A DNA stretch of 64,000 bases, from positions 2,391 through 66,390 of the IMG/VR virus record IMGVR_UViG_3300033752_000023; one strand, written 5' to 3'. Positions 1-23,346 of the stretch are shown here, one piece after another. Source of the DNA: a virus (Duplodnaviria; Caudoviricetes). Position 1 is the first letter of the stretch; each line of letters opens with the position of its first letter. Made by a program: the position numbers and the translations under genes. The notes beneath the pieces were generated by a model. The model saw only the letters and a program-made list of their open reading frames with translations. It made no database searches and was not told where the DNA came from.

Positions 1-4
1 ACGT

Positions 5-1261
5 TTGAAGAAACTAGTGAATGGTAGTCAGATGTTCCTACGTTCTGCATGGGGCTCGGCACTAGGTGAAGGTCAAGCTATAGACATACTAGGTCTGGAC
101 GAGTATGACCGTATGAAAGAGGGCGTAGAATTAGCGTTCCGTGAGTCTATGAAATCTTCTGCATATGGTCTTATGAGACGCTGGAGTACACCTACTATAC
201 CAGGTCGTGGAATAGATCTTCTGTTCGGTAAGAGTGACCAACGCTTTTATCATCATAAATGTGATAAATGTGGATACTGGCAGGTCCTCACACTTGAAGA
301 CAACATGATTCAAGTCAAGCCAAACGGTGTGGATTTGGTAAATGAACAGATAGAAGATGGTACATTCATGTTCATTTGTCAGAAATGTAAGAGGGAATTG
401 AACCGTTGGAACAAAGGTGAGTATGTTGCTAAGTATCCTGATAGGCGTGAAATACGTGGTTACCACATAAGTCAGCTTGATGCTGTTTGGATTTCCGCAG
501 ATGAGATTATGAGAAACCAATTCCATTATAAGGTCAAGCAGTTATTCTATAACTACGTAATTGGAATGCCTTATGCTTCTGAAGGTTTAATTATTACAGA
601 CCAAGATGTATTGGGCTGTGTAGCCTTCCCAGAGCCAATAGGCTATCGTGACTATTCTGTTTACAAGAAAGTTGTAGCCGGTATAGACTGGGGTCATTTC
701 AACTGGATGGTAATACTAGGTCTAACAGAAGATGACCAAGTACACCTACTTGACTTACACTGGATAGAAGACAACCCTAATGCCCCATTAGAGTGCGTGA
801 ATGTATTTACAACCTTACTGCAACCTTATGACCCAGATGTTATTGTAGCAGATAACGGTTTTGGTGCTGACCGTAACAGTTACCTAATACAGATGTTCCC
901 GGGTCGTACATTTGCATGTGATTGGGATACGCACAAAAGCAAAATTCCATTAATAGATTCATGGAATGACAATGCAGCAAAAGTCAGAGTAGATAAGACG
1001 GTTAAAATGAAGCGTGTGTTATATAATGTAAAATCTAGAGCTATTAAGACATTTGCTATGAATGAGAAATTGGCAATGCTTATTAAACATTTGAAGAATG
1101 TCCGTACTCTTATGGAGGAAGAAGAGGGTGAAGTTTATGAGAAAGTCACTCGTATTGGTGATGATCACCTAGCGACATCTTTAGCTTATGCCTATATTGC
1201 TCTGGATCGTATACTAGAAAAGCATAAACCAAAATCTAACTTTGGATTTGAGTTCATTTAG
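5..1261 (+). CDS. Terminase large subunit, C-terminal part (5' end lies outside the window)
   Basis: Walker B-like LGLDEYD, motif III WSTPT, Zn-ribbon HKCDKC...CQKC, RNase H-like nuclease motifs AGIDWG and GDDHL; the frame is open to the window edge. Confidence 0.9.
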   Translation: MKKLVNGSQMFLRSAWGSALGEGQAIDILGLDEYDRMKEGVELAFRESMKSSAYGLMRRWSTPTIPGRGIDLLFGKSDQRFYHHKCDKCGYWQVLTLEDNMIQVKPNGVDLVNEQIEDGTFMFICQKCKRELNRWNKGEYVAKYPDRREIRGYHISQLDAVWISADEIMRNQFHYKVKQLFYNYVIGMPYASEGLIITDQDVLGCVAFPEPIGYRDYSVYKKVVAGIDWGHFNWMVILGLTEDDQVHLLDLHWIEDNPNAPLECVNVFTTLLQPYDPDVIVADNGFGADRNSYLIQMFPGRTFACDWDTHKSKIPLIDSWNDNAAKVRVDKTVKMKRVLYNVKSRAIKTFAMNEKLAMLIKHLKNVRTLMEEEEGEVYEKVTRIGDDHLATSLAYAYIALDRILEKHKPKSNFGFEFI

Positions 1262-1273
1262 GGAGGTGTAAAT

Positions 1274-3985
1274 ATGGACCTATTTCTTGACTTAGAAAAG
1301 GGCAGAAAAAGTGTTGGTAGGGTAGATGGGAGCCTTACTGACAAAAAGAAAGATAAACTGCAACTTGTAATAGATCAACTAGGGTTACAGAACTTTGAAA
1401 AAGACCTAGTCACACGTAAGGTTGTAAGGAAATCTTATGAAGACGATTACAAAGACGATGAAATAAAGAAAGCTGACAATAGTCACCTGCCGGAAGGGGC
1501 AGAGAGGTTTGCTTATAAAACACCTACCAACTATGACATCATTTACATTCCAGTTAACAGGCTAAAACAGGTATATCAAACTGATAAGGCTCTGGACCCT
1601 AAGAAAGTCAATGAAAACATGAGAAAGATAAAAGAAGGTATCCCTCTGGACCCTATAGTAATTGGGTACAACTATGATGTCCATGACGGTCACCATAGGT
1701 GGGAAGCGGCTAAGAAATTAGGTCACACCCATGTACCATGTAGGGTAGTAGGTGCAGACCCAGACAAGGTAATGGAATCTAAGAAGAAATACAGAGAAGT
1801 GTGGAAATCAATGTCTACTGATGTAGATGACTGGGACTCTAAATCTTTAGTCCATGTACTAGACTTACAGAAAGCTATGCTCAACAAAGGAAAGTTAGTC
1901 AAACGTAGGGTTGCAGTTAGAGGTAAAAACGGTAAAGTATTCTACCGTATGCAATGGGTAAGACCTGATGCAAAGGCACCTAACATAGAGCACCCTGGGG
2001 TAGACCATAGTACCTATCACCATCATGAAGAAGGTATTAAGGAAATGGAGCGTAGGCAATCTAACCGTTTCCCAGTACTACATCATGATGCTAATAAGCT
2101 CAAATTCATTGAGCATAACTATAGAACTGATAAGCAAAAATACACTGAAGCGGAAAGAAAGTTCAATGCTGGGGAAAAGTTACCGCCAGTTAAGATAAAT
2201 CCTAAAGGTGAAGTACTAGACAATCATCACTTAGTCGACTTGGCAAGAAACAAGGGTTTGACACATGTTCCTGTTATCGTAATGGGTAACCCAACCCTAA
2301 AGAAACAGCTAGAGGACAAACTCAAGGATGAGGTAACTGTAAAGGACGAAGAAACTGGACAACACATACCTGCTGCCCTAGCAGATGATGATAACGTGAA
2401 AAATTCTAATGCTGGTTTATCAGCTGATATAGTTGATGATTTAGAACACTTCAATAACTTCACTAAGAAGAAATACACCAAACAGCACCTTATGAATGAA
2501 GCTAGGCGTCAAGGTATCACATGGAATGATAAGAAGAATGATGGTACACCCCTACCAGAAAACTCTGCTATCCTGTGGATGAGGGCTCATCAGGCAATTG
2601 TTGACCACATAAAATCTGGTAAGAAGTTTGAGGTACGACATGATGAGAAAGACGTTGATAAGAGAATGCAACAGGATGGTAAGGATTCTATACACAAGCA
2701 CTTCTTGAGGCTATTGGAAAAACATGGAAGTAAAGACGCATTGATGGAATGGGCTAGAAACAACGGTATAAAGTGGAAAGAGAAGGAAGATCCTACTATC
2801 AACTGGATGTATGCAGTTAAAGCTATTAAGCAGGAACTTGCTAAAGGTAGAATGCTAAGTGGTGTACGTACACGTCAGAAAAAGGCTATGGAAGAAGCTA
2901 ATACTGTAGTAACTGACCAAATTAAGTCTATGGTTACTGCTATAGGTAAGAAATATGGTAAATCCCAAGTAATGAAACGTGCTGAACAATTAGGTATCCA
3001 GTTCGATAGGTTCACTAAGAAGGGTGAACAACTCCCAGAGAACTCTAACATCCTATGGATGCGTGCACATGAAGCTATATCGAAATATATCGCTAAGGGT
3101 AACGAGTTTAAGATGGGCGATGAACAAGACACCGGAATCGTATCTACAGTCGGTGACTATGGTGAAGTAAAAGTCACTAAGAATCAGTCTATAGCACTTG
3201 ACAGGGCGAAGCGGAACAGCCAAAATAAAGAACCAAAGATGAAGAAATGGGCTCTCAAGGCACTCATGGTAGACCGAGGTATAAACCAAGAGCAGGCAGA
3301 GGAATTGTATAATCAATTCATGGAAAAAGCTAGAAATGCTAAGATAATGATACACTTTGACCCATTTGAAAAGCTACCAAATGGAGTAAATCTCATAGAT
3401 CAACTTAGCTCAGATGGCGTGTTTAAAAACGACTATGAGCTAAATCGTGGATTTGAACCAGAGCATAGAGAAATTAATGAGAGAGATCTATTTGGTGATG
3501 AGTATGATGAAGCTTCTCACAAAGAGCGTCCTAACTATGGTGTAATAGACCTATATAACCTGGGTCTAGCTTCAAACCCATTAGGCGGAGATGTAGCTTT
3601 TGTACTCAAAGATGAGGTCAAAAAGCGTGCTACAGGTTCTGCTATAGATTCCAATAGCATTCCTTATGGTGAGTCAGGTCAATGGGTACGTTCATTAGAA
3701 GACCCGCATCACCTAATCATAGATAGATGGCGTTCAAGATGGAAAAACGTAAACAAAAAAGACGGACAACGGATACGTGCTATGGATGCTGTACTTCAAG
3801 GTAAACCAAACAAGGATGACAACAAATATTTTGAATCACACATACATGGTGGCGTTAACTTTGCACGTGACGTTGACCATATCTTAGTCCCTCAGTCCTG
3901 GAAATCTGATAAAGCCCATAAAGAGAAACATGAAGCCATTAAGAACTTTGCTAAACAGTTTGGATTACAGGTTAAATATGATTAA
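1274..3985 (+). CDS. Modular 903-aa protein: ParB/Srx-like domain, shared KGK-QWV module, degenerate second ParB-like domain, three helical repeats, C-terminal DUF3626-like domain
   Basis: PIVIG..DVHDGHHRWEAAKKLG..HVP (ParB-like); PPVKI..VLDNHHL..GLTHVPV; RPNYG..FVLKDEV..RAT..DS and YFESHIHGGV..RDVDHI resemble DUF3626; RBS GGAGG upstream. Confidence 0.75.
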   Translation: MDLFLDLEKGRKSVGRVDGSLTDKKKDKLQLVIDQLGLQNFEKDLVTRKVVRKSYEDDYKDDEIKKADNSHLPEGAERFAYKTPTNYDIIYIPVNRLKQVYQTDKALDPKKVNENMRKIKEGIPLDPIVIGYNYDVHDGHHRWEAAKKLGHTHVPCRVVGADPDKVMESKKKYREVWKSMSTDVDDWDSKSLVHVLDLQKAMLNKGKLVKRRVAVRGKNGKVFYRMQWVRPDAKAPNIEHPGVDHSTYHHHEEGIKEMERRQSNRFPVLHHDANKLKFIEHNYRTDKQKYTEAERKFNAGEKLPPVKINPKGEVLDNHHLVDLARNKGLTHVPVIVMGNPTLKKQLEDKLKDEVTVKDEETGQHIPAALADDDNVKNSNAGLSADIVDDLEHFNNFTKKKYTKQHLMNEARRQGITWNDKKNDGTPLPENSAILWMRAHQAIVDHIKSGKKFEVRHDEKDVDKRMQQDGKDSIHKHFLRLLEKHGSKDALMEWARNNGIKWKEKEDPTINWMYAVKAIKQELAKGRMLSGVRTRQKKAMEEANTVVTDQIKSMVTAIGKKYGKSQVMKRAEQLGIQFDRFTKKGEQLPENSNILWMRAHEAISKYIAKGNEFKMGDEQDTGIVSTVGDYGEVKVTKNQSIALDRAKRNSQNKEPKMKKWALKALMVDRGINQEQAEELYNQFMEKARNAKIMIHFDPFEKLPNGVNLIDQLSSDGVFKNDYELNRGFEPEHREINERDLFGDEYDEASHKERPNYGVIDLYNLGLASNPLGGDVAFVLKDEVKKRATGSAIDSNSIPYGESGQWVRSLEDPHHLIIDRWRSRWKNVNKKDGQRIRAMDAVLQGKPNKDDNKYFESHIHGGVNFARDVDHILVPQSWKSDKAHKEKHEAIKNFAKQFGLQVKYD

Positions 3986-4347: not shown

Positions 4348-4380
4348 AGAGGAGTGAGTTTGATTCACTCCTCTTTTTTT
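4348..4380 (+). terminator. Intrinsic terminator
   Basis: AGAGGAGTGA/TCACTCCTCT 10-bp stem followed by a T-run. Confidence 0.8.
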
Positions 4381-4410
4381 ATGGTAAAAACAAGGTCGGG
4401 AGGGTTACCT

Positions 4411-5100
4411 ATGAGAACTAAAACTGTAGGGTTTTATCTGGAAAGAATGAATATACCATCTCATAAGAGAAACAATGAGGAGTTGTTTGAAAAACTAGAT
4501 AGTGCTAATAGTGACGAAGAGCGTCACCACATAGTAGAGAACATACTGATGAATAACATCAAGCTGGTATTTCATATCCTCAATAAACGATTCCCAGATA
4601 TAACTGGTCTATGTCAAAAAATCAGAGTTACTTATGATGATGTATTTAGTGTTGGAGTATATGGATTATTGAAATCTATATACACTTTTAATAGCTCCAA
4701 AAATATCAAATTCTCCACCTATGCTAGTAGAGTAATCAACAATGAGCTAGGAATATTTATGCGTAAGCACAGAAGGTCCCTAATGGTAACTAGCATAGAA
4801 GAAACTATATATGAAGATAAGCAGGGGAGAGAAGGCATAACACTAATGGATGTACTAATAGGTAGTGCTGATGGTATAGAACAGTACATTACTGAAGAAT
4901 ATAATGTATTTTTCCTAGAAGAGCTTGAAAGAGCCCTTACCCCTAAGGAAATAAATATGCTAAGGCTGTATTTTTATGGAAGGATGACTCAAAAACAAAT
5001 AGCAGATGCTATGGATATGAATCAGAGCTATGTTAGTAGGAAACTAAAGACAATACTACGGAAAGCTAAAAAACTTCATAAGAAGTTGCAGGATATGTAG
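4411..5100 (+). CDS. Sigma-70 family RNA polymerase sigma factor, SigE/SigK (sporulation)-like
   Basis: Region 2 NIKLVFHI..DDVFSVGVYGLLKSIYTFN..KFSTYASRVINNEL and region 4 MTQKQIADAMDMNQSYVSR. The ATG at 4411 follows GGAGGG; the ORF track start at 4354 lies inside the terminator. Confidence 0.9.
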   Translation: MRTKTVGFYLERMNIPSHKRNNEELFEKLDSANSDEERHHIVENILMNNIKLVFHILNKRFPDITGLCQKIRVTYDDVFSVGVYGLLKSIYTFNSSKNIKFSTYASRVINNELGIFMRKHRRSLMVTSIEETIYEDKQGREGITLMDVLIGSADGIEQYITEEYNVFFLEELERALTPKEINMLRLYFYGRMTQKQIADAMDMNQSYVSRKLKTILRKAKKLHKKLQDM

Positions 5101-5576: not shown

Positions 5577-6059
5577 ATGAACGGAAGAGTACATTATGAA
5601 GTTCTAAGGAATTCCCTGCATCGGGACGATATATTAGAGCATGCTAAGGCAAATGGTGTTTCCTGGGAAGAGCATAGCCACCCAGGTATTAACTGGATGA
5701 GGGCTAGTTCTGCAATTATTAAACATATAGACAAAGGTAACAAGTTCCATACTGATGGTATTGACCTTGAAACTGGCAAGAAAATGCTAGACCATTATAT
5801 TCAGTTACGTGAAGCCCATAAGAAAACAATGATACCTCATATACGGTCAGCTGTGGCTAAACTGCACGCAGAGAAAGGTGACTCTAACACAAGCCCTATG
5901 GACTTGCTGGAGGAAGCCCATGAGCACCTAAAGGCTAATGGTGGTCATGTGTGGGCAGAAAAACTATCAACCCTACACCATATCAATATGCAGATAAAAA
6001 AACTATCTGATAGGATAGATAAAATGTCTAAAGCACAATCTAAGACACAGTCCGTGTGA
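5577..6059 (+). CDS. 160-aa protein with one copy of the helical G[IV]xW..INWMRA repeat found in the modular proteins
   Basis: EHAKANGVSWEEHSHPGINWMRASSAIIKHIDKGNKF aligns with the repeats in ORF 1274-3985. Confidence 0.75.
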   Translation: MNGRVHYEVLRNSLHRDDILEHAKANGVSWEEHSHPGINWMRASSAIIKHIDKGNKFHTDGIDLETGKKMLDHYIQLREAHKKTMIPHIRSAVAKLHAEKGDSNTSPMDLLEEAHEHLKANGGHVWAEKLSTLHHINMQIKKLSDRIDKMSKAQSKTQSV

Positions 6060-10246: not shown

Positions 10247-13200
10247 ATGTTCAAGTTTACTGAAGAACAAATAGCGAAATATCGTGACATTACTCCACCA
10301 TTTGGTATGATTGGTTCTACAACCTATAAGAGGACATATTCAAGACCTATCTATGATGAAAACGGTAAGATGGTAAATAGAGAATCATGGTTGGATACTA
10401 TTGTACGTGTTATTGAAGGTAATGTTAATTTAGGTATAGAGAATGGTGATCCTACTGCAACGCCAGAGTGGGCAGAAGAAGCCTTGGAATATATGTTTTA
10501 CATGGGTGTTATGCCACCTGGACGTGGATATTGGATGATGGGAACGGAGTACGCTTATCAACGTGGTGGAGATGCTTTAAACAACTGCTGGTACGTAGCT
10601 ATTCGCCCGCAAAGCTACGAGGATATTGAAATGTTCAAGGACCAACCATATATTTTCTCTGATCCATGGAAAGAGATGCCTTCGTATCCATTTGTATTTA
10701 TGTTTGACCGGGCTATGTTGGGTGGAGGAGTAGGATTCGGTGCCAGTCGTAAGAATCTTAAATTAATGCCTAAGGTTACTACTGAAGTTGATCTTAAAAT
10801 CTTTCTACACCCTAATCATCCAGACTGGGAACGTATTATGGCTAGTGAGGAATGGGGTCGTATTAAAGATTATATTACAACGGACACAAATATTGCCCAG
10901 AAAGCCAAAGAAGAAGGTACTTACTATTTTACTACAGACAACCGTGAGGGTTGGAATATTTCTGTACGTGAAACTATTGATGGTCATTTTGTGAAGACTA
11001 AGCTAGATAAAAATAAGGTTACCCTGGTGGTTGACTTATCACGTATCAGACCATATGGGGCACCGATTAAAGGATTCGGTGGTACTGCTAGTGGTCCACT
11101 TCCACTTATTTCAGCCTTAGTGGAGATTAACAGAATACTTAATGCTCGTGTAGGTAAACGTATCACAAGTGAAGATACATTAGACATCATGAACTTGTTA
11201 GGGCGTTGTGTAGTTGCAGGTAATGTGAGACGTACTGCTCTTATTGCCTTGGGTGACGCTGATGACCCAGATTATGTTAATGCTAAGAACTACAAACTCG
11301 TTGAGCCAATTATGGAAAAAGATGAAAATGGTTACACTATCTGGGAAACTAATAAGTGGGGTCGGATGACACAAAAACGTAAGAGTTTTGATATAGTAGT
11401 GCAGGAACTATTAGACAAAAAATTATCTGAATTCTACAAGGACGGTAGAACTCCATCAGATGAACAATTAGCTGAGTTGAAAGCCAAAGCAGAGGAAGAA
11501 GCTAATTACCTATTTGAATTAGCTTGGAAGCAGGAGAACCATAGATGGGCTTCTAACAATTCTGTATATACTTACGAGATGTTTAAGGACCATCACTTCA
11601 TTGCCGCAGGTATTATTGCTAATGGTGAGCCAGGAGTAGGTAATGAGTGGTTAATGAAGAACTTTGGTCGTATTATGGACGGTTTTCAAGAAGCAATAGA
11701 TCGAGATGCAGAAGGGCTTAATCCTTGTTTTAGGGGCGACATGAGACTTCTAACAGTTGATGGGTATAAAACGTTTGAAGAGTTGGAAGGAACAGAACCA
11801 CTCATTATCAATAAGGATGGAGTTGTAGTTAAGGGTAAGGTCTGGTGCTCTGGGGTAAAAGATATTGTGGAGGTTAAGTTCCTTAATCGAGATAGTATTT
11901 TTGTTACTCCAGACCATGTGTTTATGTTGAATGATGGTACTGAGTGTCAGGCTAAGGACTTGAAAGGTAAGCGTATTATGCCATTCCTTACTGAAAACTA
12001 TAATCACGAGGATGAGTTTGTAAAACTTGGCTTTATTTTGGGGGATGGCTCATTCCGTATAACCAAAGGACATTTTGATGGTGTAGATGTAAATATAGGA
12101 AAAAAGGATACTGACGTGTGTGAAATGTTTGGTAGTCCTAAGCTTCAGTCTAGTGGTAGGGTTTTCTTCACTTCAGAGTTTAATGACCTGATTGAGCAAG
12201 TAGGTGTTGATACAGTACCTGTATACAATAGGTCATTGCCTTCTACTTATAGTGATTGGACAGACAGTCAGAAGCTAGGATTTTTACGTGGTTTGTATTC
12301 AGCTAATGGTAGTGTTTTAAATAACGGTCGTGTAACTTACAAGACTACTAGTGAGCAATTGGCATACCAATTAGTAGAGGCTTTGAGCGAGTTTGGTATT
12401 CATGCTTATGTGACATCTAACAGTCCTACAGACATTGCATGGCATAATGGCACGTACACATCAGCTCAAAGTTATGATGTAAATATACAAAGGTATGAAT
12501 CTCGGCTTGAGTTCTACAGACTAATTGGGTTTGTACAGCAATATAAGCAAAATAAACTTAGAACTACTCTAATTGAAACAGCTCCTATGGTTTGTAATGT
12601 AATTGAGCGTGGACAAGAGAAAGTGTATGACTTTACTGAACCTCTAACCCATTGGGGGGTAGTTGAGGGGGTTATAGCTCATAACTGCGCAGAAATCACA
12701 TTATGGAACTGTGAGCCTTGTAACCTAGTTGAATTTGTACCATACATGTGCATGAAGTCTGGCTTAGACTTCAAGAAGGCTTTACGTATTGCCACACAAT
12801 ACGCATATCGTATTACATTTGCTAAATACATCTGGAAAGCAACTGCTAGGGTAATAGCTCAGAACAGACGTATCGGTGTATCATTAACAGGTATGCAAGA
12901 CTACTTCCTTACTAAATATGGTCACTATGCAGTAAAAGGATTCGAGATTGACCCTGAGACAGGTAAAGAAGACATTACAAAGCCAATTTTTTACCAAGAG
13001 ATTGTAGATGAGTTAGATGAATGGTATAGCTACGTAAGGGAAGTTAACATGGAGCATGCTAGATTGATGGGTGATAATCCATCTATCAAGGTTACTACAG
13101 TTAAACCATCTGGTACAGTTGCTAAATTGCCTGGTGTATCATCTGGAATTCATTGGCACTATTCACCTTATATAATTCAGCGTATCCGATTCCATGAAAC

Positions 13201-13681
13201 AGACCCTAACTTGAAGGTACTGGAAGCATGTGGATTCCCTATTGAGAAGGCTGCTAAGGAACCTAATACAATGGTAGTGGAATTCCCTATCAAGAATCCT
13301 AACGCAGACCATCCTAACTTCTTGGGTGCTGGTGACATTCCATTAGAAGTGCAGTTTGCTAACCAATACTTATTTGCATATGCTTGGGCTGACAATGCGG
13401 TATCAGCAACATTGACATTCAAATATGAGGAAGTGGACAAAATCGAGCCGCTGTTGAAGGCTTACAACAACCGTATTAAGTCCACATCGCTGTTACCATA
13501 TAGTGGTCACGGATATGTTCAAGCTCCTTGGGAACCTATAACTAAAGAGGAATATGAAAGACGTGCAGCACAACTGAAGGCTACTCCAGAGGAAATGTAT
13601 GAACTTATACCACTGGTAACGGAAGCTGACGAAGAAATATTAGATCCAGACTGCTTAGGTGGTGCTTGCCCAGTTAAATAA
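10247..13681 (+). CDS. nrdJ: Class II (adenosylcobalamin-dependent) ribonucleotide reductase containing an intein
   Basis: PPGRG, ALNNC, VVAGNVRR, RWASNNS, NP|CAEI active site, RRIGVS, TTVKPSGT, C-terminal C..GACP. Confidence 0.93.
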   Translation: MFKFTEEQIAKYRDITPPFGMIGSTTYKRTYSRPIYDENGKMVNRESWLDTIVRVIEGNVNLGIENGDPTATPEWAEEALEYMFYMGVMPPGRGYWMMGTEYAYQRGGDALNNCWYVAIRPQSYEDIEMFKDQPYIFSDPWKEMPSYPFVFMFDRAMLGGGVGFGASRKNLKLMPKVTTEVDLKIFLHPNHPDWERIMASEEWGRIKDYITTDTNIAQKAKEEGTYYFTTDNREGWNISVRETIDGHFVKTKLDKNKVTLVVDLSRIRPYGAPIKGFGGTASGPLPLISALVEINRILNARVGKRITSEDTLDIMNLLGRCVVAGNVRRTALIALGDADDPDYVNAKNYKLVEPIMEKDENGYTIWETNKWGRMTQKRKSFDIVVQELLDKKLSEFYKDGRTPSDEQLAELKAKAEEEANYLFELAWKQENHRWASNNSVYTYEMFKDHHFIAAGIIANGEPGVGNEWLMKNFGRIMDGFQEAIDRDAEGLNPCFRGDMRLLTVDGYKTFEELEGTEPLIINKDGVVVKGKVWCSGVKDIVEVKFLNRDSIFVTPDHVFMLNDGTECQAKDLKGKRIMPFLTENYNHEDEFVKLGFILGDGSFRITKGHFDGVDVNIGKKDTDVCEMFGSPKLQSSGRVFFTSEFNDLIEQVGVDTVPVYNRSLPSTYSDWTDSQKLGFLRGLYSANGSVLNNGRVTYKTTSEQLAYQLVEALSEFGIHAYVTSNSPTDIAWHNGTYTSAQSYDVNIQRYESRLEFYRLIGFVQQYKQNKLRTTLIETAPMVCNVIERGQEKVYDFTEPLTHWGVVEGVIAHNCAEITLWNCEPCNLVEFVPYMCMKSGLDFKKALRIATQYAYRITFAKYIWKATARVIAQNRRIGVSLTGMQDYFLTKYGHYAVKGFEIDPETGKEDITKPIFYQEIVDELDEWYSYVREVNMEHARLMGDNPSIKVTTVKPSGTVAKLPGVSSGIHWHYSPYIIQRIRFHETDPNLKVLEACGFPIEKAAKEPNTMVVEFPIKNPNADHPNFLGAGDIPLEVQFANQYLFAYAWADNAVSATLTFKYEEVDKIEPLLKAYNNRIKSTSLLPYSGHGYVQAPWEPITKEEYERRAAQLKATPEEMYELIPLVTEADEEILDPDCLGGACPVK
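11726..12685 (+). mobile_element. Intein (320 aa) with LAGLIDADG endonuclease, inserted immediately before the RNR catalytic Cys
   Basis: EGLNP|CFRGDMRLLT...GVIAHN|CAEI; LGFILGDGS and FLRGLYSANGS motifs. Confidence 0.93.
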
Positions 13682-14412: not shown

Positions 14413-15762
14413 ATGGAATTGTATATTGATTTAGGTAAAGCTTTTAATACAGCTCGATTAGTTAAGAAACCAGTACAAGTGCATGGTAAGAATGGTAAAA
14501 TATTTACTCGTATGCAATGGGTTTACCCTGCGACTGATGAAGTTGTGTTTGAAGAGCCAGGGGGTAGGCATGATGAATACCATAATAGATTAAAAAAGAT
14601 GAGCGATGAAGAGAAAAGGTTTGCTCTGCAACAACTCTATAAGAATAAACCAGATAAGGTACGATTATTACTGCATAATTCTGATTTTCATGATCTACAA
14701 ACTGAACATAGCATTATTAATTATTTACATCATCATATCCATAATATACCTCAGCACATGTTAGAGGAATATTTACCTACATTAGACAATAATAGACAGG
14801 AAACTAGCAACATAGATGGTGTTTCTGAACAGGAATCTGAAAAATCTAAGAATAACTTTAAGATTCCAATATCATTAAAACACACAGATCATGGGCTTAC
14901 AAGTAAGGAAGTAAAGAAAAGACATGGTGAAATAGGAGATATAGATTTATCTAAACTTAGAATGGGAACAAAAGTGTCGGATTTTGATGGGGGTAATCTA
15001 GATGGAGATGATAGAAAGGTATTATCTCATATATTTAAAGACATAACAACAGAAGGGTTAGAATATGTATTTAGCCATCCAAAAGGTGAGTTTACTTGTT
15101 CATTCACAGACGTTATGGTATACAATAACGAGGATTACCCAAAGGCAAACATAAATTTTGATATATTAGATAAGGAAGGTAGTACAATAGGATTTGTTAG
15201 TAGGACCTTATGGAGAAATGAAGAAGGTCATTTGTGTGTATATAATGATGAACTATCAATAGATAAAGAGTATACAGGGTCAGGGATGGGTGATGTATTA
15301 TATAAGAGATCTGAACAGTTATGGAGGCATCTATCTGGTGGACATCCAGTAGAAATATCTCTATCAGCTAACATTAGTGTGGGTGTATATGCTTGGGCTA
15401 AGAAAGGTTTTGACTTTAAAATGCCTAATGAGTTACAAAGGACTAAGAATGAATTAGAAAAATTTTGTATAGAGAACAACATAGATTTAGGTAAAGCCCT
15501 CAAGAAAAGTGGATATAACAGTATAGATGATTTAAAACATTCTTGGGATTTTGCTACACTAGATGATGATAAAGAATATGACTTAAATTCTGTAGCTCCA
15601 AAGTACTTTAAGAAGGAGATAAAAGGTACTGGTCATTTAGGTAAAGCCTTTATGTTAGGTGGTAAATCTGAGTGGCTGGGGAAGAAAGTGCTTAATGCTG
15701 ATGATCATACAGAAAAAGTAGGAGATATACATGATGAGTTTAATAAAAGGAGGGTTAAATAA
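14413..15762 (+). CDS. Modular 449-aa protein: N-terminal KGK-QWV module plus C-terminal GNAT-like acetyltransferase
   Basis: MELYIDLGKAFNTARLVKKPVQVHGKNGKIFTRMQWV; acetyl-CoA motif A-like EYTGSGMGDVLY, then LSANISVGVYAWAKKGFDF. Confidence 0.75.
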   Translation: MELYIDLGKAFNTARLVKKPVQVHGKNGKIFTRMQWVYPATDEVVFEEPGGRHDEYHNRLKKMSDEEKRFALQQLYKNKPDKVRLLLHNSDFHDLQTEHSIINYLHHHIHNIPQHMLEEYLPTLDNNRQETSNIDGVSEQESEKSKNNFKIPISLKHTDHGLTSKEVKKRHGEIGDIDLSKLRMGTKVSDFDGGNLDGDDRKVLSHIFKDITTEGLEYVFSHPKGEFTCSFTDVMVYNNEDYPKANINFDILDKEGSTIGFVSRTLWRNEEGHLCVYNDELSIDKEYTGSGMGDVLYKRSEQLWRHLSGGHPVEISLSANISVGVYAWAKKGFDFKMPNELQRTKNELEKFCIENNIDLGKALKKSGYNSIDDLKHSWDFATLDDDKEYDLNSVAPKYFKKEIKGTGHLGKAFMLGGKSEWLGKKVLNADDHTEKVGDIHDEFNKRRVK

Positions 15763-18700
15763 TGGCTAAAAAGCTGAAGAGAACAGTTCCATATAAAGCT
15801 TCTAGTAAGGAAGGTTTATTTAAAGGTAAAGGTGATGCTTGGTTTCATCCAGAGGTTTTTGATGAAGAATATGAGCATAAGACTAATAAAGCTATAAGGA
15901 GGTTTTCTAGAAACAACAGAAAAGTCATATCTAAATGTATGGAATTGTATATTGATCTGGAAAAAGGTAGACTAAACACAGCCAAGTTAGTTAAAAGACC
16001 AGTACAGGTACGTGGTAAGGACGGTAAAATCTATACACGTATGCAGTGGGTAGACCCACATTCTGGAGAGCCAGTTAACAATCAACGTAGCCTTAAGCTA
16101 GAGAATGAAAAGGAACAGCCTAAGTTTAGAAGTCAAAAGGAGTATATTGACCACTATGTTAAAAACTTGTCTAGGGATGAAAAATATCATCTTATAGACA
16201 AACATGGTATTAAATGGGAACGTAACCACCATGAAGCTATAGACCACAAAAATGCTGTTATGGCTCTTAAGGAGCACCTCTATAAGAACCCACATCTAGT
16301 TGGGGTAGAACACCTACCTAAAGAGCCTGATGGTAGTAAGACACCGGAAGGTACAGATAGAATTGATGAGTGGCTAAAGAAATATAAGAATCATCCAGAG
16401 CTCCTATACAGAATGATGCACCATGCAGGTGTTCTTGATGACCCTACTGATCCACGCACAGTACCAGAATGGGGTCCAAAGGATAAAGGTGGTAATGGTA
16501 CAGCCCCTATACGCCACATGAGGAACATGATGACATTTAAAAAGCATCTGAAGGAAAATCCTCACCTAATGGATTTATATGACAGTCATGAGGAATTCGG
16601 TTTACCTAATACTAAAACTGGTTCTAAGTCCCATAAGCCAGAGCCTAAAGTAAAATCTAAGGCTCAAGAGGGTGGAAACACTATCCATGGCATATTGAAA
16701 AATATGAGTTCAGAAGAGCTATATGCTTTGATGAAACGCTTAGGCATAGCAGATAGAGATCCACGAACAGTACCAGAATGGGGTCCAAAGGATAAAGGTG
16801 GTAATGGTACAGCCCCTATCCGACATATGAGAAATATGATGGCTCTTAAGAAAGCTATCGAGCGAGACCCTTCTATCCTTAATTTAGACGAAAACGGTGA
16901 TTTGAGCGAACAGGAGAAAGAACGTTTGGCGAGTCTCAGTGGTAAGGAGAAGCTATCACATGATGTAGACGAATTCCTAAAGGGTGTTGACCGAAAATTA
17001 GTGCTTGCATGGGCTGACACATATGATTGGCATGATCATATGAAGAATCGTATTAAGAGTGACCATGAGCACATAGATAATATGCATAAGATTTCAGCTC
17101 TTAAGAAAATCATTATGGACAACCCTCATCTTATGGAAGAGGGTCCTATGAAGGAAGAATTTGATACAGACAGACTATTAAAAACTAAGATCAAGAACAA
17201 GGAAATGCAGAAAATATTACGTGAAGTAGTTGGATTGAAGGGTGTAGGAGACGTTAAGCAGGCAGAAAAAGGCGTAGAGTGGTCATTTGGGGTAGCTTCA
17301 TTTGCACGTATAGATAAAGACCAAGATGGTAAGGCAGTTTTATCAGTAGTAGATGCTGGTAAGGATGGAAGTGGATGGGATGAATACGTTTTCCCTATGG
17401 AAGATGTGGTTAAATACTTAGAAAAGATACGCAATGGTAAACAAGCGAAATTAAAGTCTAAAGAAGTACCTCTGCATAAGAAATCTCCTGCGGAGATGTG
17501 GAAAGCCATAGAAGAAGATTTTGATAAGAATTATACTCATGAAGTTGGGGAAGAGCTGAAAGATGAAATAGGAATGCTATATAGAACTCATGGATTTGAT
17601 AATGTAGATGCTTTCTTGAAGGAGTTACCTGTAAAGGTGTCTGGTGACACATTTAGAAAATTACTAGACAAATATGGAGTTTTATATAATCATTCTCAGA
17701 TTTACACTGATGGCGAAGCCTGGAAAGAAGTAGTATATAAAAGTCTTGTCGAAAAGACTAAGACTAAAAATGCTTCTGAATACCTAGTAATTAAGCCGGG
17801 CACAGATGAAGTAGATACATGGGTTCTACATCAATCAGCTAAGCATTGGAGCCCAGAGGAGCGTGCACAGGCTCGTAAGGAATTGATTCATAGACAAGTC
17901 CATATAGAAGATGAAGATGGTTTTGAGGACAAGGAGCATAGACGTGTCAAATTAGTAGACCACATACACCAGGCTTTAGAGTTCGTACCGTTTGATTTGA
18001 TGACAGATGTGCTGTGTTCTGGTAAGGGAGTTAAGCTGAAGTTTATGAAAACAGGAGAAGATGGTGGGGAACATTATGGTAACTATTTTGGGTATAGAGT
18101 AGATGGTCCTGTCATATATTTTGACCATAGGTATGTAAAGGATGACTCTGTATTAAAGGCATCTCACCCATTAGACCATACACCTAAACCTAGGTTGCTT
18201 GGTATAAGTAGAAAGCTCATATATTCAGCATTTGCTGATACCTGTGCTCATGAATTTGCCCATGCTATAGACCATTTCCTATCTGGTAGTATAGGGACAT
18301 ACTTAACCTGGGACAATCCTATAGGCAGGAAATATGCTGAAGGTCACACTGATGCAGTTATTAGGTCTTATAAGGCTTCCGTAGAGCGTTCAAATCCTAA
18401 GAAATACTTAGGCGCAGCTAGAAATGGTAACACTAGGTATTTCTGGCATTTGGATGAATGGATTTCAAGTTATGAGGGTCGTATCTATAATAGAAGGTAC
18501 ACTGACCCATCCCTTATGGATAATTATATAGGTCGAGATGAGAATGGTCAATTGTTAGATAAGGCATGGGACACAGAAACAGATGAACGTGGGTTAGAAC
18601 ATTGGAGTGAGAATACATCCAGGTATGCAAATGCTTTCCATGCTTATAGGAGATGGAGGGAAGAGACAGGAAATACTAGTACATCTATGGATTCCTGGGC

Positions 18701-18998
18701 TAGACAGATGTATGAGAAGTTCATGGACATGGGGTATGGTGATGACTCTAATAAGCAAATTGACGGTAAACTTCTTGCTAGGTATACAGCCGGTATAAGG
18801 ACCAACCCAATAGAGGGATATGGGTACTTATGGCATAGGATGAAACAAGTACACCCAGAGTTGCATGGGTCACTAAATGCAATCTTTGGTAGGGGTGACT
18901 TTGTGGATAAAGACGATGTAGCAAATAGAAAAGAGTTGTTTGAAAGAGGGGATTATACTCGTAAGTCTGAAGAACCGAAATTGATTATTGAATTGTAG
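15762..18998 (+). CDS. Modular 1078-aa protein: KGK-QWV module, helical repeats, C-terminal HExxH zincin-like metallopeptidase
   Basis: MELYIDLEKGRLNTAKLVKRPVQVRGKDGKIYTRMQWV from aa 60; CAHEFAHAIDH at 18243-18272; downstream EHWSE. Confidence 0.75.
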   Translation: MAKKLKRTVPYKASSKEGLFKGKGDAWFHPEVFDEEYEHKTNKAIRRFSRNNRKVISKCMELYIDLEKGRLNTAKLVKRPVQVRGKDGKIYTRMQWVDPHSGEPVNNQRSLKLENEKEQPKFRSQKEYIDHYVKNLSRDEKYHLIDKHGIKWERNHHEAIDHKNAVMALKEHLYKNPHLVGVEHLPKEPDGSKTPEGTDRIDEWLKKYKNHPELLYRMMHHAGVLDDPTDPRTVPEWGPKDKGGNGTAPIRHMRNMMTFKKHLKENPHLMDLYDSHEEFGLPNTKTGSKSHKPEPKVKSKAQEGGNTIHGILKNMSSEELYALMKRLGIADRDPRTVPEWGPKDKGGNGTAPIRHMRNMMALKKAIERDPSILNLDENGDLSEQEKERLASLSGKEKLSHDVDEFLKGVDRKLVLAWADTYDWHDHMKNRIKSDHEHIDNMHKISALKKIIMDNPHLMEEGPMKEEFDTDRLLKTKIKNKEMQKILREVVGLKGVGDVKQAEKGVEWSFGVASFARIDKDQDGKAVLSVVDAGKDGSGWDEYVFPMEDVVKYLEKIRNGKQAKLKSKEVPLHKKSPAEMWKAIEEDFDKNYTHEVGEELKDEIGMLYRTHGFDNVDAFLKELPVKVSGDTFRKLLDKYGVLYNHSQIYTDGEAWKEVVYKSLVEKTKTKNASEYLVIKPGTDEVDTWVLHQSAKHWSPEERAQARKELIHRQVHIEDEDGFEDKEHRRVKLVDHIHQALEFVPFDLMTDVLCSGKGVKLKFMKTGEDGGEHYGNYFGYRVDGPVIYFDHRYVKDDSVLKASHPLDHTPKPRLLGISRKLIYSAFADTCAHEFAHAIDHFLSGSIGTYLTWDNPIGRKYAEGHTDAVIRSYKASVERSNPKKYLGAARNGNTRYFWHLDEWISSYEGRIYNRRYTDPSLMDNYIGRDENGQLLDKAWDTETDERGLEHWSENTSRYANAFHAYRRWREETGNTSTSMDSWARQMYEKFMDMGYGDDSNKQIDGKLLARYTAGIRTNPIEGYGYLWHRMKQVHPELHGSLNAIFGRGDFVDKDDVANRKELFERGDYTRKSEEPKLIIEL
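16449..16830 (+). repeat. Intragenic duplication encoding DPRTVPEWGPKDKGGNGTAPIRHMRNMM twice
   Basis: 53 identical bp at 16458-16510 and 16767-16819, 309 bp apart. Confidence 0.95.
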
Positions 18999-21736: not shown

Positions 21737-22525
21737 TTGTACAATGAATTGGGAGGTGATGATATGGACATCTTTCGCTTTAGTGTTGATGCTGATATAG
21801 TTAAGTCCAATAGTGAAGATGAAGGACGTAGATTGATACGTGGTTATGCTTCTACTGAGGATGAGGATAGGCATGGTGAACATTTAGTACAAAAAGGTCT
21901 AGATATTTCAGATTTCGTAAAGCATGGATATTTTAACTATGATCACGATAATAGTATAATATTAGGATACCCTCTACCTACTTGTAGAATAGACGAGAAG
22001 GGGTTCTGGGTAGAAGGTGAGCTATTGAAGGGTATCCCTATGGCAGACCGTATTTGGGAGTTAGCTGTGGCACTGAAGAAATCTAGTGCTCCTAGAAAAA
22101 TAGGATTTTCTGTTGAAGGTAAGGTCTTACAACGTGAGGGTAACCGTATAGTCAAAGCGAAAATTTATAATGTAGCTATAACTACCAACCCAGTAAATAC
22201 AAACTGCTCATGGGAAGCAGTGGTGAAATCATTTAGTGGAAATGTAGGTAATATACTCGATAAGATAGATAAGTCCTTAGAAGCTGGATATGAGACTGAC
22301 CCAACTAAATTAGAGGGTGGGGGAGTTTTCCGTAAGGAAAGTCTAGATAAGGACTTACACAACCTATCATATGTGATAGATGATGGGGAGAAGAAGAAAA
22401 TTCTTAAACAGAAGCTATCAGCTAAGAAATCTCTATCAAGAAATGAACTCATAGTCTACTTACAGATAACGAAGGGATTCTCTTTGCAACAAGCAAAGGA
22501 CTTTATAGACAAGCATATTAATTAG
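21737..22525 (+). CDS. Prohead protease (probable start ATG 21764)
   Basis: IRGYAST..EDRHGE..GYFNYDH, GFSVEG, NVAIT.NPVN; GGGAGGTG RBS before 21764. Confidence 0.9.
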   Translation: MYNELGGDDMDIFRFSVDADIVKSNSEDEGRRLIRGYASTEDEDRHGEHLVQKGLDISDFVKHGYFNYDHDNSIILGYPLPTCRIDEKGFWVEGELLKGIPMADRIWELAVALKKSSAPRKIGFSVEGKVLQREGNRIVKAKIYNVAITTNPVNTNCSWEAVVKSFSGNVGNILDKIDKSLEAGYETDPTKLEGGGVFRKESLDKDLHNLSYVIDDGEKKKILKQKLSAKKSLSRNELIVYLQITKGFSLQQAKDFIDKHIN

Positions 22526-22539
22526 GAGGTGCCTACCTA

Positions 22540-23346
22540 ATGTCTAAATTCGATGAAATCATTAGCAAATCATTAGATGAGATTGATGCCCTCGTAGAGG
22601 ACTTTAAGAAGAGTGTAGGGGAAGCTGAGGAAGATACTATTTCTAAAGCACAAAACGATGAAGATTTATCAGCTGATGATATATCTGAAGATACTCCATC
22701 TTCTGATAACGGAGATGAAGATGCTGATGAGCCGCAAGCAGATGACCCTGCTGAAACACAAGAAGACGTAGATGCTGACACTGAAGGAGAAGAAGATGCT
22801 GATGAGGATGAGGAATATGAAAAATCCTTAGAAAAAGAGTTATCTTCTAACAACAGTGTCCGTAAAGCTCTAGAAGTTAGTGAATTCTTACGAGAGCTTG
22901 TAAAAAGCTTAGACAAAGTTATAGCTGATAATACCAACAGCATCAGCAAATCCTTTAAAGAATCCTATGAATCTTCTAATGGATTATTAGCTAAATCTGT
23001 TGAGGGTATTATTAAATCACAGCGTGCAGTACTAGAAACTCAGGCTGAGTTGCTAAAATCTGTACGTGCTCTAAATAAACGTGTCCAATCTTTGGAATCT
23101 CAACCAGTTGTGCGTAAATCTGTAGCTTCTAAAAATACACAAGTAGTTGAGAAGTCATTTAAAGCATCTGCTGGAGATAAACCACAACCTTCTACTACAC
23201 TAACTAAGTCACAAGCGTCTGCTAAACTTACAGCAGCGTATGAGCAGGGACAAACAGACCTATTAGACGATATACTAGCTTTAGAAGGCACAGGTAGTTT
23301 CGATTCTATATCTGATAAAGCTAAAGCGTTTTTAGGATTATTATAA
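22540..23346 (+). CDS. Acidic scaffold-like head protein
   Basis: Lies between protease and capsid genes; D/E-rich; 13 hydrophobic-x-K-[SA] sites. Confidence 0.75.
   Translation: MSKFDEIISKSLDEIDALVEDFKKSVGEAEEDTISKAQNDEDLSADDISEDTPSSDNGDEDADEPQADDPAETQEDVDADTEGEEDADEDEEYEKSLEKELSSNNSVRKALEVSEFLRELVKSLDKVIADNTNSISKSFKESYESSNGLLAKSVEGIIKSQRAVLETQAELLKSVRALNKRVQSLESQPVVRKSVASKNTQVVEKSFKASAGDKPQPSTTLTKSQASAKLTAAYEQGQTDLLDDILALEGTGSFDSISDKAKAFLGLL

Follow-up and report, generated by a model that had tools for sequence, protein, structure and literature searches.

The Salmonella effector SopF is an ADP-ribosyltransferase (ART) with an I-Y-E triad, known from the structures 7DN8 and 7DN9, and what it modifies is protein glutamine (PMC10333799). 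The domain it carries is DUF3626 (PMC6682159). Phage T4 Alt is also an ART; it is made late, a leader of about 10 residues directs it to the prohead, the prohead protease trims it, and it is injected together with the phage DNA (PMC5512222). Polyvalent proteins of phages and conjugative elements, among them the ParB head proteins of the P1 DdrB type, are described in the same paper (Iyer et al. 2017, PMC5512222), and ARTs encoded next to terminase or portal genes are considered likely to be packaged in heads (PMC9503650; the theme is also in PMC5512222). The locus compared with these systems here is in a stretch of 64,000 nucleotides, the window, that corresponds to positions 2,391 to 66,390 of IMG/VR virus record IMGVR_UViG_3300033752_000023 (a 66-kb contig, about 46% complete) and holds the head/tail gene block of an SPO1-like myophage (Herelleviridae). 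Its gene at 1274..3985 on the + strand (the strand of all features of this gene and its transcription unit given below) encodes a modular protein of 903 amino acids (aa), P0001, the C-terminal domain of which is very probably an ADP-ribosyltransferase of the SopF family.

With T4 Alt the likeness is one of proposed route. Alt is in the Alt/VIP2 clade of R-S-E type while the domain considered here is in the SopF-like clade, and the 903-aa protein, unlike Alt, is a multi-domain polyprotein. With polyvalent proteins it shares the union of unrelated effector domains (ParB-like and ART) in one polypeptide encoded among head and packaging genes, a ParB-like domain predicted to be injected, and relatives with LPD1, SLOG, GNAT and MuF-linked versions. 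However, the polyvalent proteins of PMC5512222 have ARTs of the ART-PolyVal, Alt and N4 families, whereas the ART here is DUF3626, and Pfam finds no MuF, zincin peptidase or LPD domain in the 903-aa protein itself; only relatives have them, LPD1 in P0200 and MuF in Lactococcus phage P1045.

The C-terminal SopF-family domain

The domain extends over aa 680-903 (3311..3982). It is matched in two stretches by Pfam DUF3626 (PF12294), with 52.8 bits against a cut-off of 27 (E 4e-14), and a scan of the phage's own genome agrees. Searching 1.8 billion representatives with aa 680-903 yielded 178 matches at E <= 1e-3, and a profile of the family (118 members) aligned to SopF chain 7dn8_C at E 3.2e-31 over 242 profile positions; with the single domain sequence the match to SopF is weak (E 0.79). 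The AlphaFold model of the domain has a predicted local distance difference test score (pLDDT) of 95.7 and a predicted template modelling score (pTM) of 0.92, and its best Foldseek match is SopF (E 1e-9, TM 0.68), the next being DarT, CteC, OspC3/CopC, Tpt1 and LT/CT. Because the Pfam, profile, AlphaFold and Foldseek results and the invariant residues described below all point the same way, the assignment of the modelled domain to the SopF-type fold and family is solid. The initial annotation, a model's reading of the letters with no database search, had associated DUF3626 with the ART fold, and had named the lack of such a fold in a profile search and structure prediction as what would speak against it. 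Both were run and the fold they gave is ART-like; the association is borne out by the SopF literature, by the profile match and by the ARTs that are the closest structural matches of the model.

The near-invariant residues of the family, judged from 165 domain copies (about 150 family representatives), are all kept: R732, E736, F740, R752, P753, Y755, G756, G772, R785, T787, D792, S793, Y852, E854, H858, G859 and D866. The motifs RPNYG, RAT..DS and YFESHIHGG that the initial annotation had picked out prove to be at these near-invariant positions. E854 is invariant (156 of 156 aligned domains) and Y755 nearly so (159 of 160). The NAD-bound SopF entry, 7dn9, differs from the apo entry by a Glu to Asp change within Y-I-E-A-H-I-H-G, which marks that Glu as the catalytic one, and Y-F-E854-S-H-I-H-G aligns there, making Glu854 (codon 3833-3835) the candidate catalytic residue. 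H694 occupies the beta-1 position (H or N in the family), and on sequence grounds H694, Y755 and E854 may constitute a triad of H-Y-E type. Across homologues of the 903-aa protein its ART domain is the best-conserved part, with 43-68% identity.

The protein is a member of the DUF3626/SopF family but is not a SopF orthologue, and it is probably not an ART of the Alt/VIP2 type. Identity to SopF is only about 20%, and consensus residues that SopF has lost are kept: R785, where SopF has Asn, and S793, where it has Ile. As an effector of type III secretion, SopF acts on the V-ATPase in animal cells and is ARF-dependent, whereas the putative delivery of the phage domain is from a head into a Gram-positive cell. 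The N-terminal 126 residues of SopF are without counterpart, the profile and structural alignments spanning only SopF residues 127-374, and so the ARF dependence of SopF is probably without counterpart too. For DarT, the identity is 8-9% and no sequence-level relationship was detected.

Modules, junctions and relatives

The protein is built of two units that were resolved with hidden Markov models (HMMs) of its modules, cut from an alignment (A2) of 27 full-length homologues and searched against the fetched proteins and the open reading frames (ORFs) of the window. In the 903-aa protein these HMMs extend over aa 11-56 (L1), 68-200 (ParB1), 193-232 (TAG), 240-350 (ParB2), 386-640 (REP), 641-689 (LNK) and 690-903 (ART). 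Ahead of L1 is a 9-aa leader that ends in the predicted cut site MDLFLDLEK/G (1274..1303; the slash marks the predicted cut), LEK/G being aa 7-10 and its pattern present at this position in 14 of 21 aligned homologues. The general form of the leader, 9-11 aa long, is M-[DE]-x-x-[LI]-D-[LI]-x-K/[GAS]. It precedes three different downstream modules and also begins the 449-aa product of ORF 14413, SPO1 gp2.12, P0003, P0005, P0012, P0014 and P0015. Its counterpart MELYIDLEKGR, initially placed at the N-terminus of a 1078-aa protein of the window, is indeed in that protein, though at residues 60-70 rather than at the listed N-terminus. [In alignment A2 most homologues, among them P0154 (89% identical), begin with a further domain, some 70 residues long, ahead of the first VEK/S site; the 903-aa protein is without it and begins directly with the 9-aa leader.]

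The leader is followed by a propeptide-like stretch, L1 (aa 11-66, RKSVGR...LGLQNF..., 1304..1471), with predicted sites VRK/S (aa 51-54; conserved in 15 of 22 homologues) and IKK/A (aa 64-67; 21 of 22). The L1 HMM matches most homologues and also P0198/P0199. Then comes the first ParB/Srx-like domain (aa 67-190, 1472..1843), which contains HDGHHR at aa 137-142 and, at aa 176-179, the site VWK/S conserved in 23 of 25 homologues. Its match to Pfam ParB_N (PF02195) is under the cut-off (21.8 bits, cut-off 26.3; E 2e-4), that to PHROG ParB families has E about 1e-9 to 1e-69, and it also matches the sulfiredoxin structure 6ky4 (E 1e-3), a SerK model (3.5e-5) and a Noc model (1.6e-3). The D-G-x-x-R phosphate-binding motif is there as DGHHR (aa 138-142), intact as first read, and YDVHDGHH (H137, D138, G139, H140, H141) is invariant among 26 homologues.

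The second unit opens with the junction/TAG module (aa 192-232, 1847..1969), LVHVLDLQK/A followed by LNKGKLVKRRVAVRGKNGKVFYRMQWV, with LDLQK/A at aa 196-201 as had been proposed for its beginning; K200 is invariant and the site LQK/A (aa 198-201) is conserved in 26 of 26 homologues. The module matches the N-terminus of phrog_25452 (E 2.5e-9), and its HMM also detects ORF 14413 (aa 2-39), ORF 15762 (aa 61-100) and the N-termini of P0003, P0005, P0014, P0157, P0161 and P0194. The next domain (aa 240-350, 1991..2323) is a true ParB homologue, as shown by hhalign of ParB1 with ParB2 (probability 97%, E 9e-11) and by cross-matching of the two HMMs in nearly all homologues. In its motif, DNHHL (aa 316-320), position 320 is L, I, M or V in 26 of 26 homologues and never Arg, which makes it the degenerate copy that it had been taken for.

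The three helical repeats of the early reading also stand (about aa 388-456, 468-530 and 545-614; 2429..3193): hhalign gives E 1.7e-28, 1.3e-17 and 3.7e-13 as compared with 0.13 for a control pair. In the AlphaFold 2 model of aa 380-690 (pLDDT 84) they are all-helical units of helix-helix-loop-long-helix form; a search of the Protein Data Bank gave no significant match for them, and they could be assigned neither to a known fold nor to one that binds DNA. [The product of a 160-aa ORF, 5577-6059 on the + strand, has the repeat once, at aa 10-65 (REP HMM).] Between the repeats and the ART domain is a helical linker (aa 641-679, 3194..3310), two long helices in the same model, and the LNK HMM accompanies ART in every homologue that carries ART.

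Full-length homologues, at 48-54% identity in tblastn, are found only in Exiguobacterium phage vB_EalM-132 and Bacillus phages CP-51 (where the homologue is gp10), Shanette, JL and S4-1, while about 19 SPO1-type records match residues 1-202 only; about 55 metagenomic proteins have the same architecture. SPO1 gp2.12 is unit 1 only, i.e. leader, L1 and ParB1, and keeps MDLHIDLNK/S, DLEK/A and VWK/S. Unit 2 occurs alone in P0014, P0194, P0008, P0182, P0185 and P0191/P0192, the first two of which begin with the leader directly before TAG. In P0198/P0199 unit 1 is joined to another payload, and P0015 begins with MELLIDLIK/A directly before ParB1. By sequence comparison, the predicted cut junctions coincide with the points at which relatives split or start. 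CP-51-type genomes encode several TAG proteins, one of them directly after the gene for the large subunit of terminase (TerL).

The ART domain also occurs in other surroundings. Beside the portal gene, Lactococcus phage P1045 (L003 2948-4615) encodes a minor head protein (Phage_Mu_F, E 3.8e-18) with a C-terminal DUF3626-like domain that matches the ART domain of the 903-aa protein in tblastn at E 7e-5 over 88% of its length. At the N-terminus of the giant relative P0018 is the last part of a MuF-type motif, and ART is present in it twice. LPD1, a domain of polyvalent proteins, is found in P0200, SLOG in P0181, and GNAT and poly(A)-polymerase domains in further relatives. [The giant metagenomic proteins P0057, P0022, P0029, P0098, P0115, P0142 and P0018 have DUF3626 in two or three tandem copies, to which some of them add GNAT and poly(A)-polymerase-type nucleotidyltransferase domains; in P0049, DUF3626 occurs together with a CotH kinase and a type IX secretion system (T9SS) sorting signal.] A locus search with the single ART domain gave no relatives; with the full-length alignment as query IMG/VR loci were found.

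Predicted cut sites

The protease of phage HK97 cuts after Lys before Ser and belongs to the S78 family. The head protease of the phage considered here matches Pfam Peptidase_S78. The mature capsid protein of a Staphylococcus phage of the Herelleviridae, 9row_B (439 aa), begins right after K24 of the 463-aa precursor 5lii_P (VVK/SF), and this K24 aligns with LNK24/A25 of the capsid protein of this phage and with the same motif in SPO1 gp6.1. The pattern [LIVMF]-x-K-[GAS] is enriched 8-fold in the scaffold (22540-23346; 12 observed, 1.5 expected, z 9) and 5-fold in the head protease (21737-22525; 8 observed, 1.6 expected, z 5.2). Head proteases generally destroy just these two proteins, and the enrichment fits an S78 protease, specific for Lys, that removes the scaffold and also destroys itself. 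For the 903-aa protein the count is 9 against 4.2 expected (z 2.3, p 0.03). The sheath has none (1.7 expected, z -1.4), and the tail-region ORFs 40741, 44366 and 52708 have 1 each where 2.6-4.3 are expected (z -1.0 to -1.6).

The proposal that two tagged units are cut apart at K-[SAG] sites is consistent with the match to the capsid site, the scaffold and protease enrichment, the conservation of the junctions and the split relatives. Its further part, that cleavage would release the modifying enzyme, needs amendment, as the ART would be freed not on its own but only within aa 201-903. A further occurrence of the pattern, MEK/A at aa 683-686, was considered as a cut directly before the ART and rejected; it is conserved in only 12 of 26 homologues and is inside the first helix of the ART fold, hence the expectation that the ART stays in the whole second unit.

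Two other carriers of the leader and TAG, the 449-aa ORF (14413-15762) and the 1078-aa ORF (15762-18998), come shortly before the genes for portal, protease, scaffold and capsid. [The stop of the former overlaps the start of the latter; neither has a Pfam family, and the 449-aa protein has a partial match to a minor-head-protein PHROG.]

Transcription unit and the 90-aa partner

The window begins inside the gene for TerL, of which it encodes the C-terminal 419 aa (2..1261; phrog_675 E 1.4e-140, Pfam GpA_ATPase). The start of the 903-aa gene is 12 nts past the TerL stop and a strong Shine Dalgarno sequence, GGGAGGTG, is 6-7 nts before its ATG; from these sequence features the start codon is credible. 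The gene, matched over its full length by phrog_26588 (E 5e-273), is thus placed between TerL and the portal block, and directly 3′ of it is a gene for a 90-aa protein (P0204; 4069..4341; phrog_26341), followed by an intrinsic terminator with a 12-bp stem and T-run (4348..4384). Their spacing and the terminator that ends them suggest that TerL, the 903-aa gene and the 90-aa gene are transcribed late and as one unit. [Within the terminator, a strong one, is the GTG at 4354 that is listed as the start of a sigma-factor-like ORF (4354-5100). The true start of that gene is probably ATG 4411, behind its own GGGAGGG, and being 3′ of the terminator it would open a new transcription unit.] The order TerL, ParB-like gene, sigma factor is common to SPO1 (gp2.11, gp2.12 and gp2.21).

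The 90-aa gene is tied to the ART. By tblastn of the phage collection it is present only in the 5 phages that carry ART (8 records), in all of them 12-25 nts past the ART stop; it follows ART in 14 of 14 IMG/VR loci and in CP-51, and it is absent from TerL-bearing loci without ART, including SPO1. The function of phrog_26341 is not annotated, the protein has no Pfam family, its structural neighbours in the Atlas reach TM <= 0.54 with no consistent family, and it is not similar to the small ORF behind the gene for MuF-ART in Lactococcus phage P1045. Gene linkage makes it a candidate cognate partner of the ART, whether inhibitor, chaperone or activator. In comparison with the macrodomain of DarTG it is far too small, and it has no detectable family.

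Farther along the window, the gene for a B12-dependent ribonucleotide reductase (10247-13681, + strand) is split by an intein, which includes a homing endonuclease domain of LAGLIDADG type (Pfam models Intein_splicing and LAGLIDADG_3).

Delivery in the head and its alternatives

The reading favoured on balance is that the 903-aa protein is a late precursor which is loaded into proheads, cut there and ejected, its ART then modifying a host macromolecule. In this scheme it would be a late polyprotein of an SPO1-like (Herelleviridae) phage, co-transcribed with terminase, and the N-terminal leader and propeptide would carry it into the prohead. The S78-type prohead protease would cut after Lys in hydrophobic-x-K/[GAS], at LEK/G, VRK/S or IKK/A, VWK/S and LQK/A. 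Two proteins would remain in the head as cargo: the ParB/Srx-like domain (about 13-15 kDa) and the second unit (aa 201-903, about 80 kDa), which consists of a basic beta-hairpin-like tag, the degenerate ParB, the three helical repeats and the SopF-family ART. Both would leave the head together with the DNA. In the early phase of the infection that follows, the ART would use host NAD+ for mono-ADP-ribosylation of a host macromolecule, most likely a protein, and the ParB-like module would act on DNA or nucleotides. The co-transcribed 90-aa protein, as cognate partner of the ART, would make it harmless in the producing cell, most likely by inhibition or as a chaperone. Where T4 gp21 cuts after Glu, an S78 protease with a predicted Lys site is envisaged here, and the proposed cutting of a portable junction motif by the prohead protease differs from the autoproteolysis of polyvalent proteins.

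Several points weigh against this scheme. The cut-site pattern is short, its enrichment within the 903-aa protein alone is modest (p about 0.03), and the cleavage site of the capsid protein is deduced from the sequence deposited with a structure, not from a paper. A literature search whose scope did not take in the SPO1 genome paper gave no report of the protein or its homologues in virions or cleaved, and nothing useful on virion proteomics of CP-51, vB_EalM-132 or SPO1 gp2.12. SopF needs a eukaryotic activator, the ARF GTPase, so that ART activity in bacteria is an assumption. The canonical Arg of ParB1 (position 142) is R in 14 of 26 homologues and S in 9 of 26. Finally, phrog_26588 is annotated as ‘ParB-like partition nuclease’, which would suit a cytoplasmic role beside the terminase.

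This last point leads to the alternative that survives best, though it is itself improbable. The protein would be a late cytoplasmic enzyme that is not packaged, the ParB-like domains working with terminase or on replicated DNA (packaging, concatemer handling or as a nuclease) and the ART modifying host or phage components in the same infection, as T4 ModA/ModB do; the K-[GAS] junctions would then be flexible linkers. The position directly after TerL agrees with this, as do the RefSeq label, the weak motif enrichment in the protein taken alone and the fact that no small terminase subunit is evident in the portion of the locus seen. However, the leader and junction motif precedes unrelated payloads on several head-block proteins, it matches the capsid maturation site and it is strongly enriched in scaffold and protease. 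In addition, Lactococcus phages have a member of the ART family joined to a MuF head protein, and if an ART produced only late were not passed on to the next cell, it would have only a short time in which to act.

Another alternative, less probable again, concerns the target and is independent of packaging. The ART could act on nucleic acid, as DarT does on thymidine in single-stranded DNA and Tpt1/KptA on the 2′-phosphate of RNA, with the ParB-like domains and repeats holding it on DNA, where it would block host replication or transcription or modify DNA ends. DarT and Tpt1 are among the next structural neighbours and ParB domains are fused to the ART, but SopF, the characterised member of the family, modifies protein glutamine (PMC10333799), the profile match to it is far closer than the relationship to DarT, and the repeats have no assignable DNA-binding fold.

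An elaboration that joins nucleic-acid targeting to delivery in the head is quite improbable. It takes the injected enzyme as a DNA-directed, DarT-like and thymidine-specific ART, loaded on host DNA by the ParB-like domains and repeats, with the 90-aa protein as its antidote in the producing cell. In SPO1-type phages thymine is replaced by 5-hydroxymethyluracil (hmU), because of which the phage would itself be immune. The 9-aa leader and the hydrophobic-x-K/[GAS] junction would be a general capsid-address code that loads arbitrary cargo into Herelleviridae capsids. No thymidylate-synthase-like gene of the hmU pathway is present in the window's own 66-kb record, an absence that is uninformative at 46% completeness.

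Least probable of all is a catalytically dead ART fold, retained in an internal head protein for binding or for its structure: the degenerate second ParB copy does show that decayed enzyme folds are tolerated in the 903-aa protein, but the ART domain has kept every near-invariant position, including the Glu aligned with the catalytic Glu of SopF, and is the part best conserved across homologues.

Implications

RefSeq and GenBank names for the homologues are ‘ParB-like partition nuclease’ or hypothetical, and the transferase is consequently invisible in current annotation. A literature search in which two papers used the term DUF3626 found none that places it in phages, and the main texts of PMC5512222 and PMC9503650 do not mention DUF3626, SopF or SPO1.

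The strictly linked 90-aa gene is a candidate for a new ART inhibitor or chaperone. The leader and junction motif, readable from the scaffold, protease and capsid protein, provides a testable rule for which proteins are cargo of SPO1-like capsids and where they are cut. To our knowledge, SopF, an effector used against animal cells, is the only characterised member of the DUF3626/SopF family. If head delivery of the phage enzyme is correct, a third ART lineage would be added to the enzymes carried in phage heads, and the SopF family would extend to the conflict between phages and bacteria.

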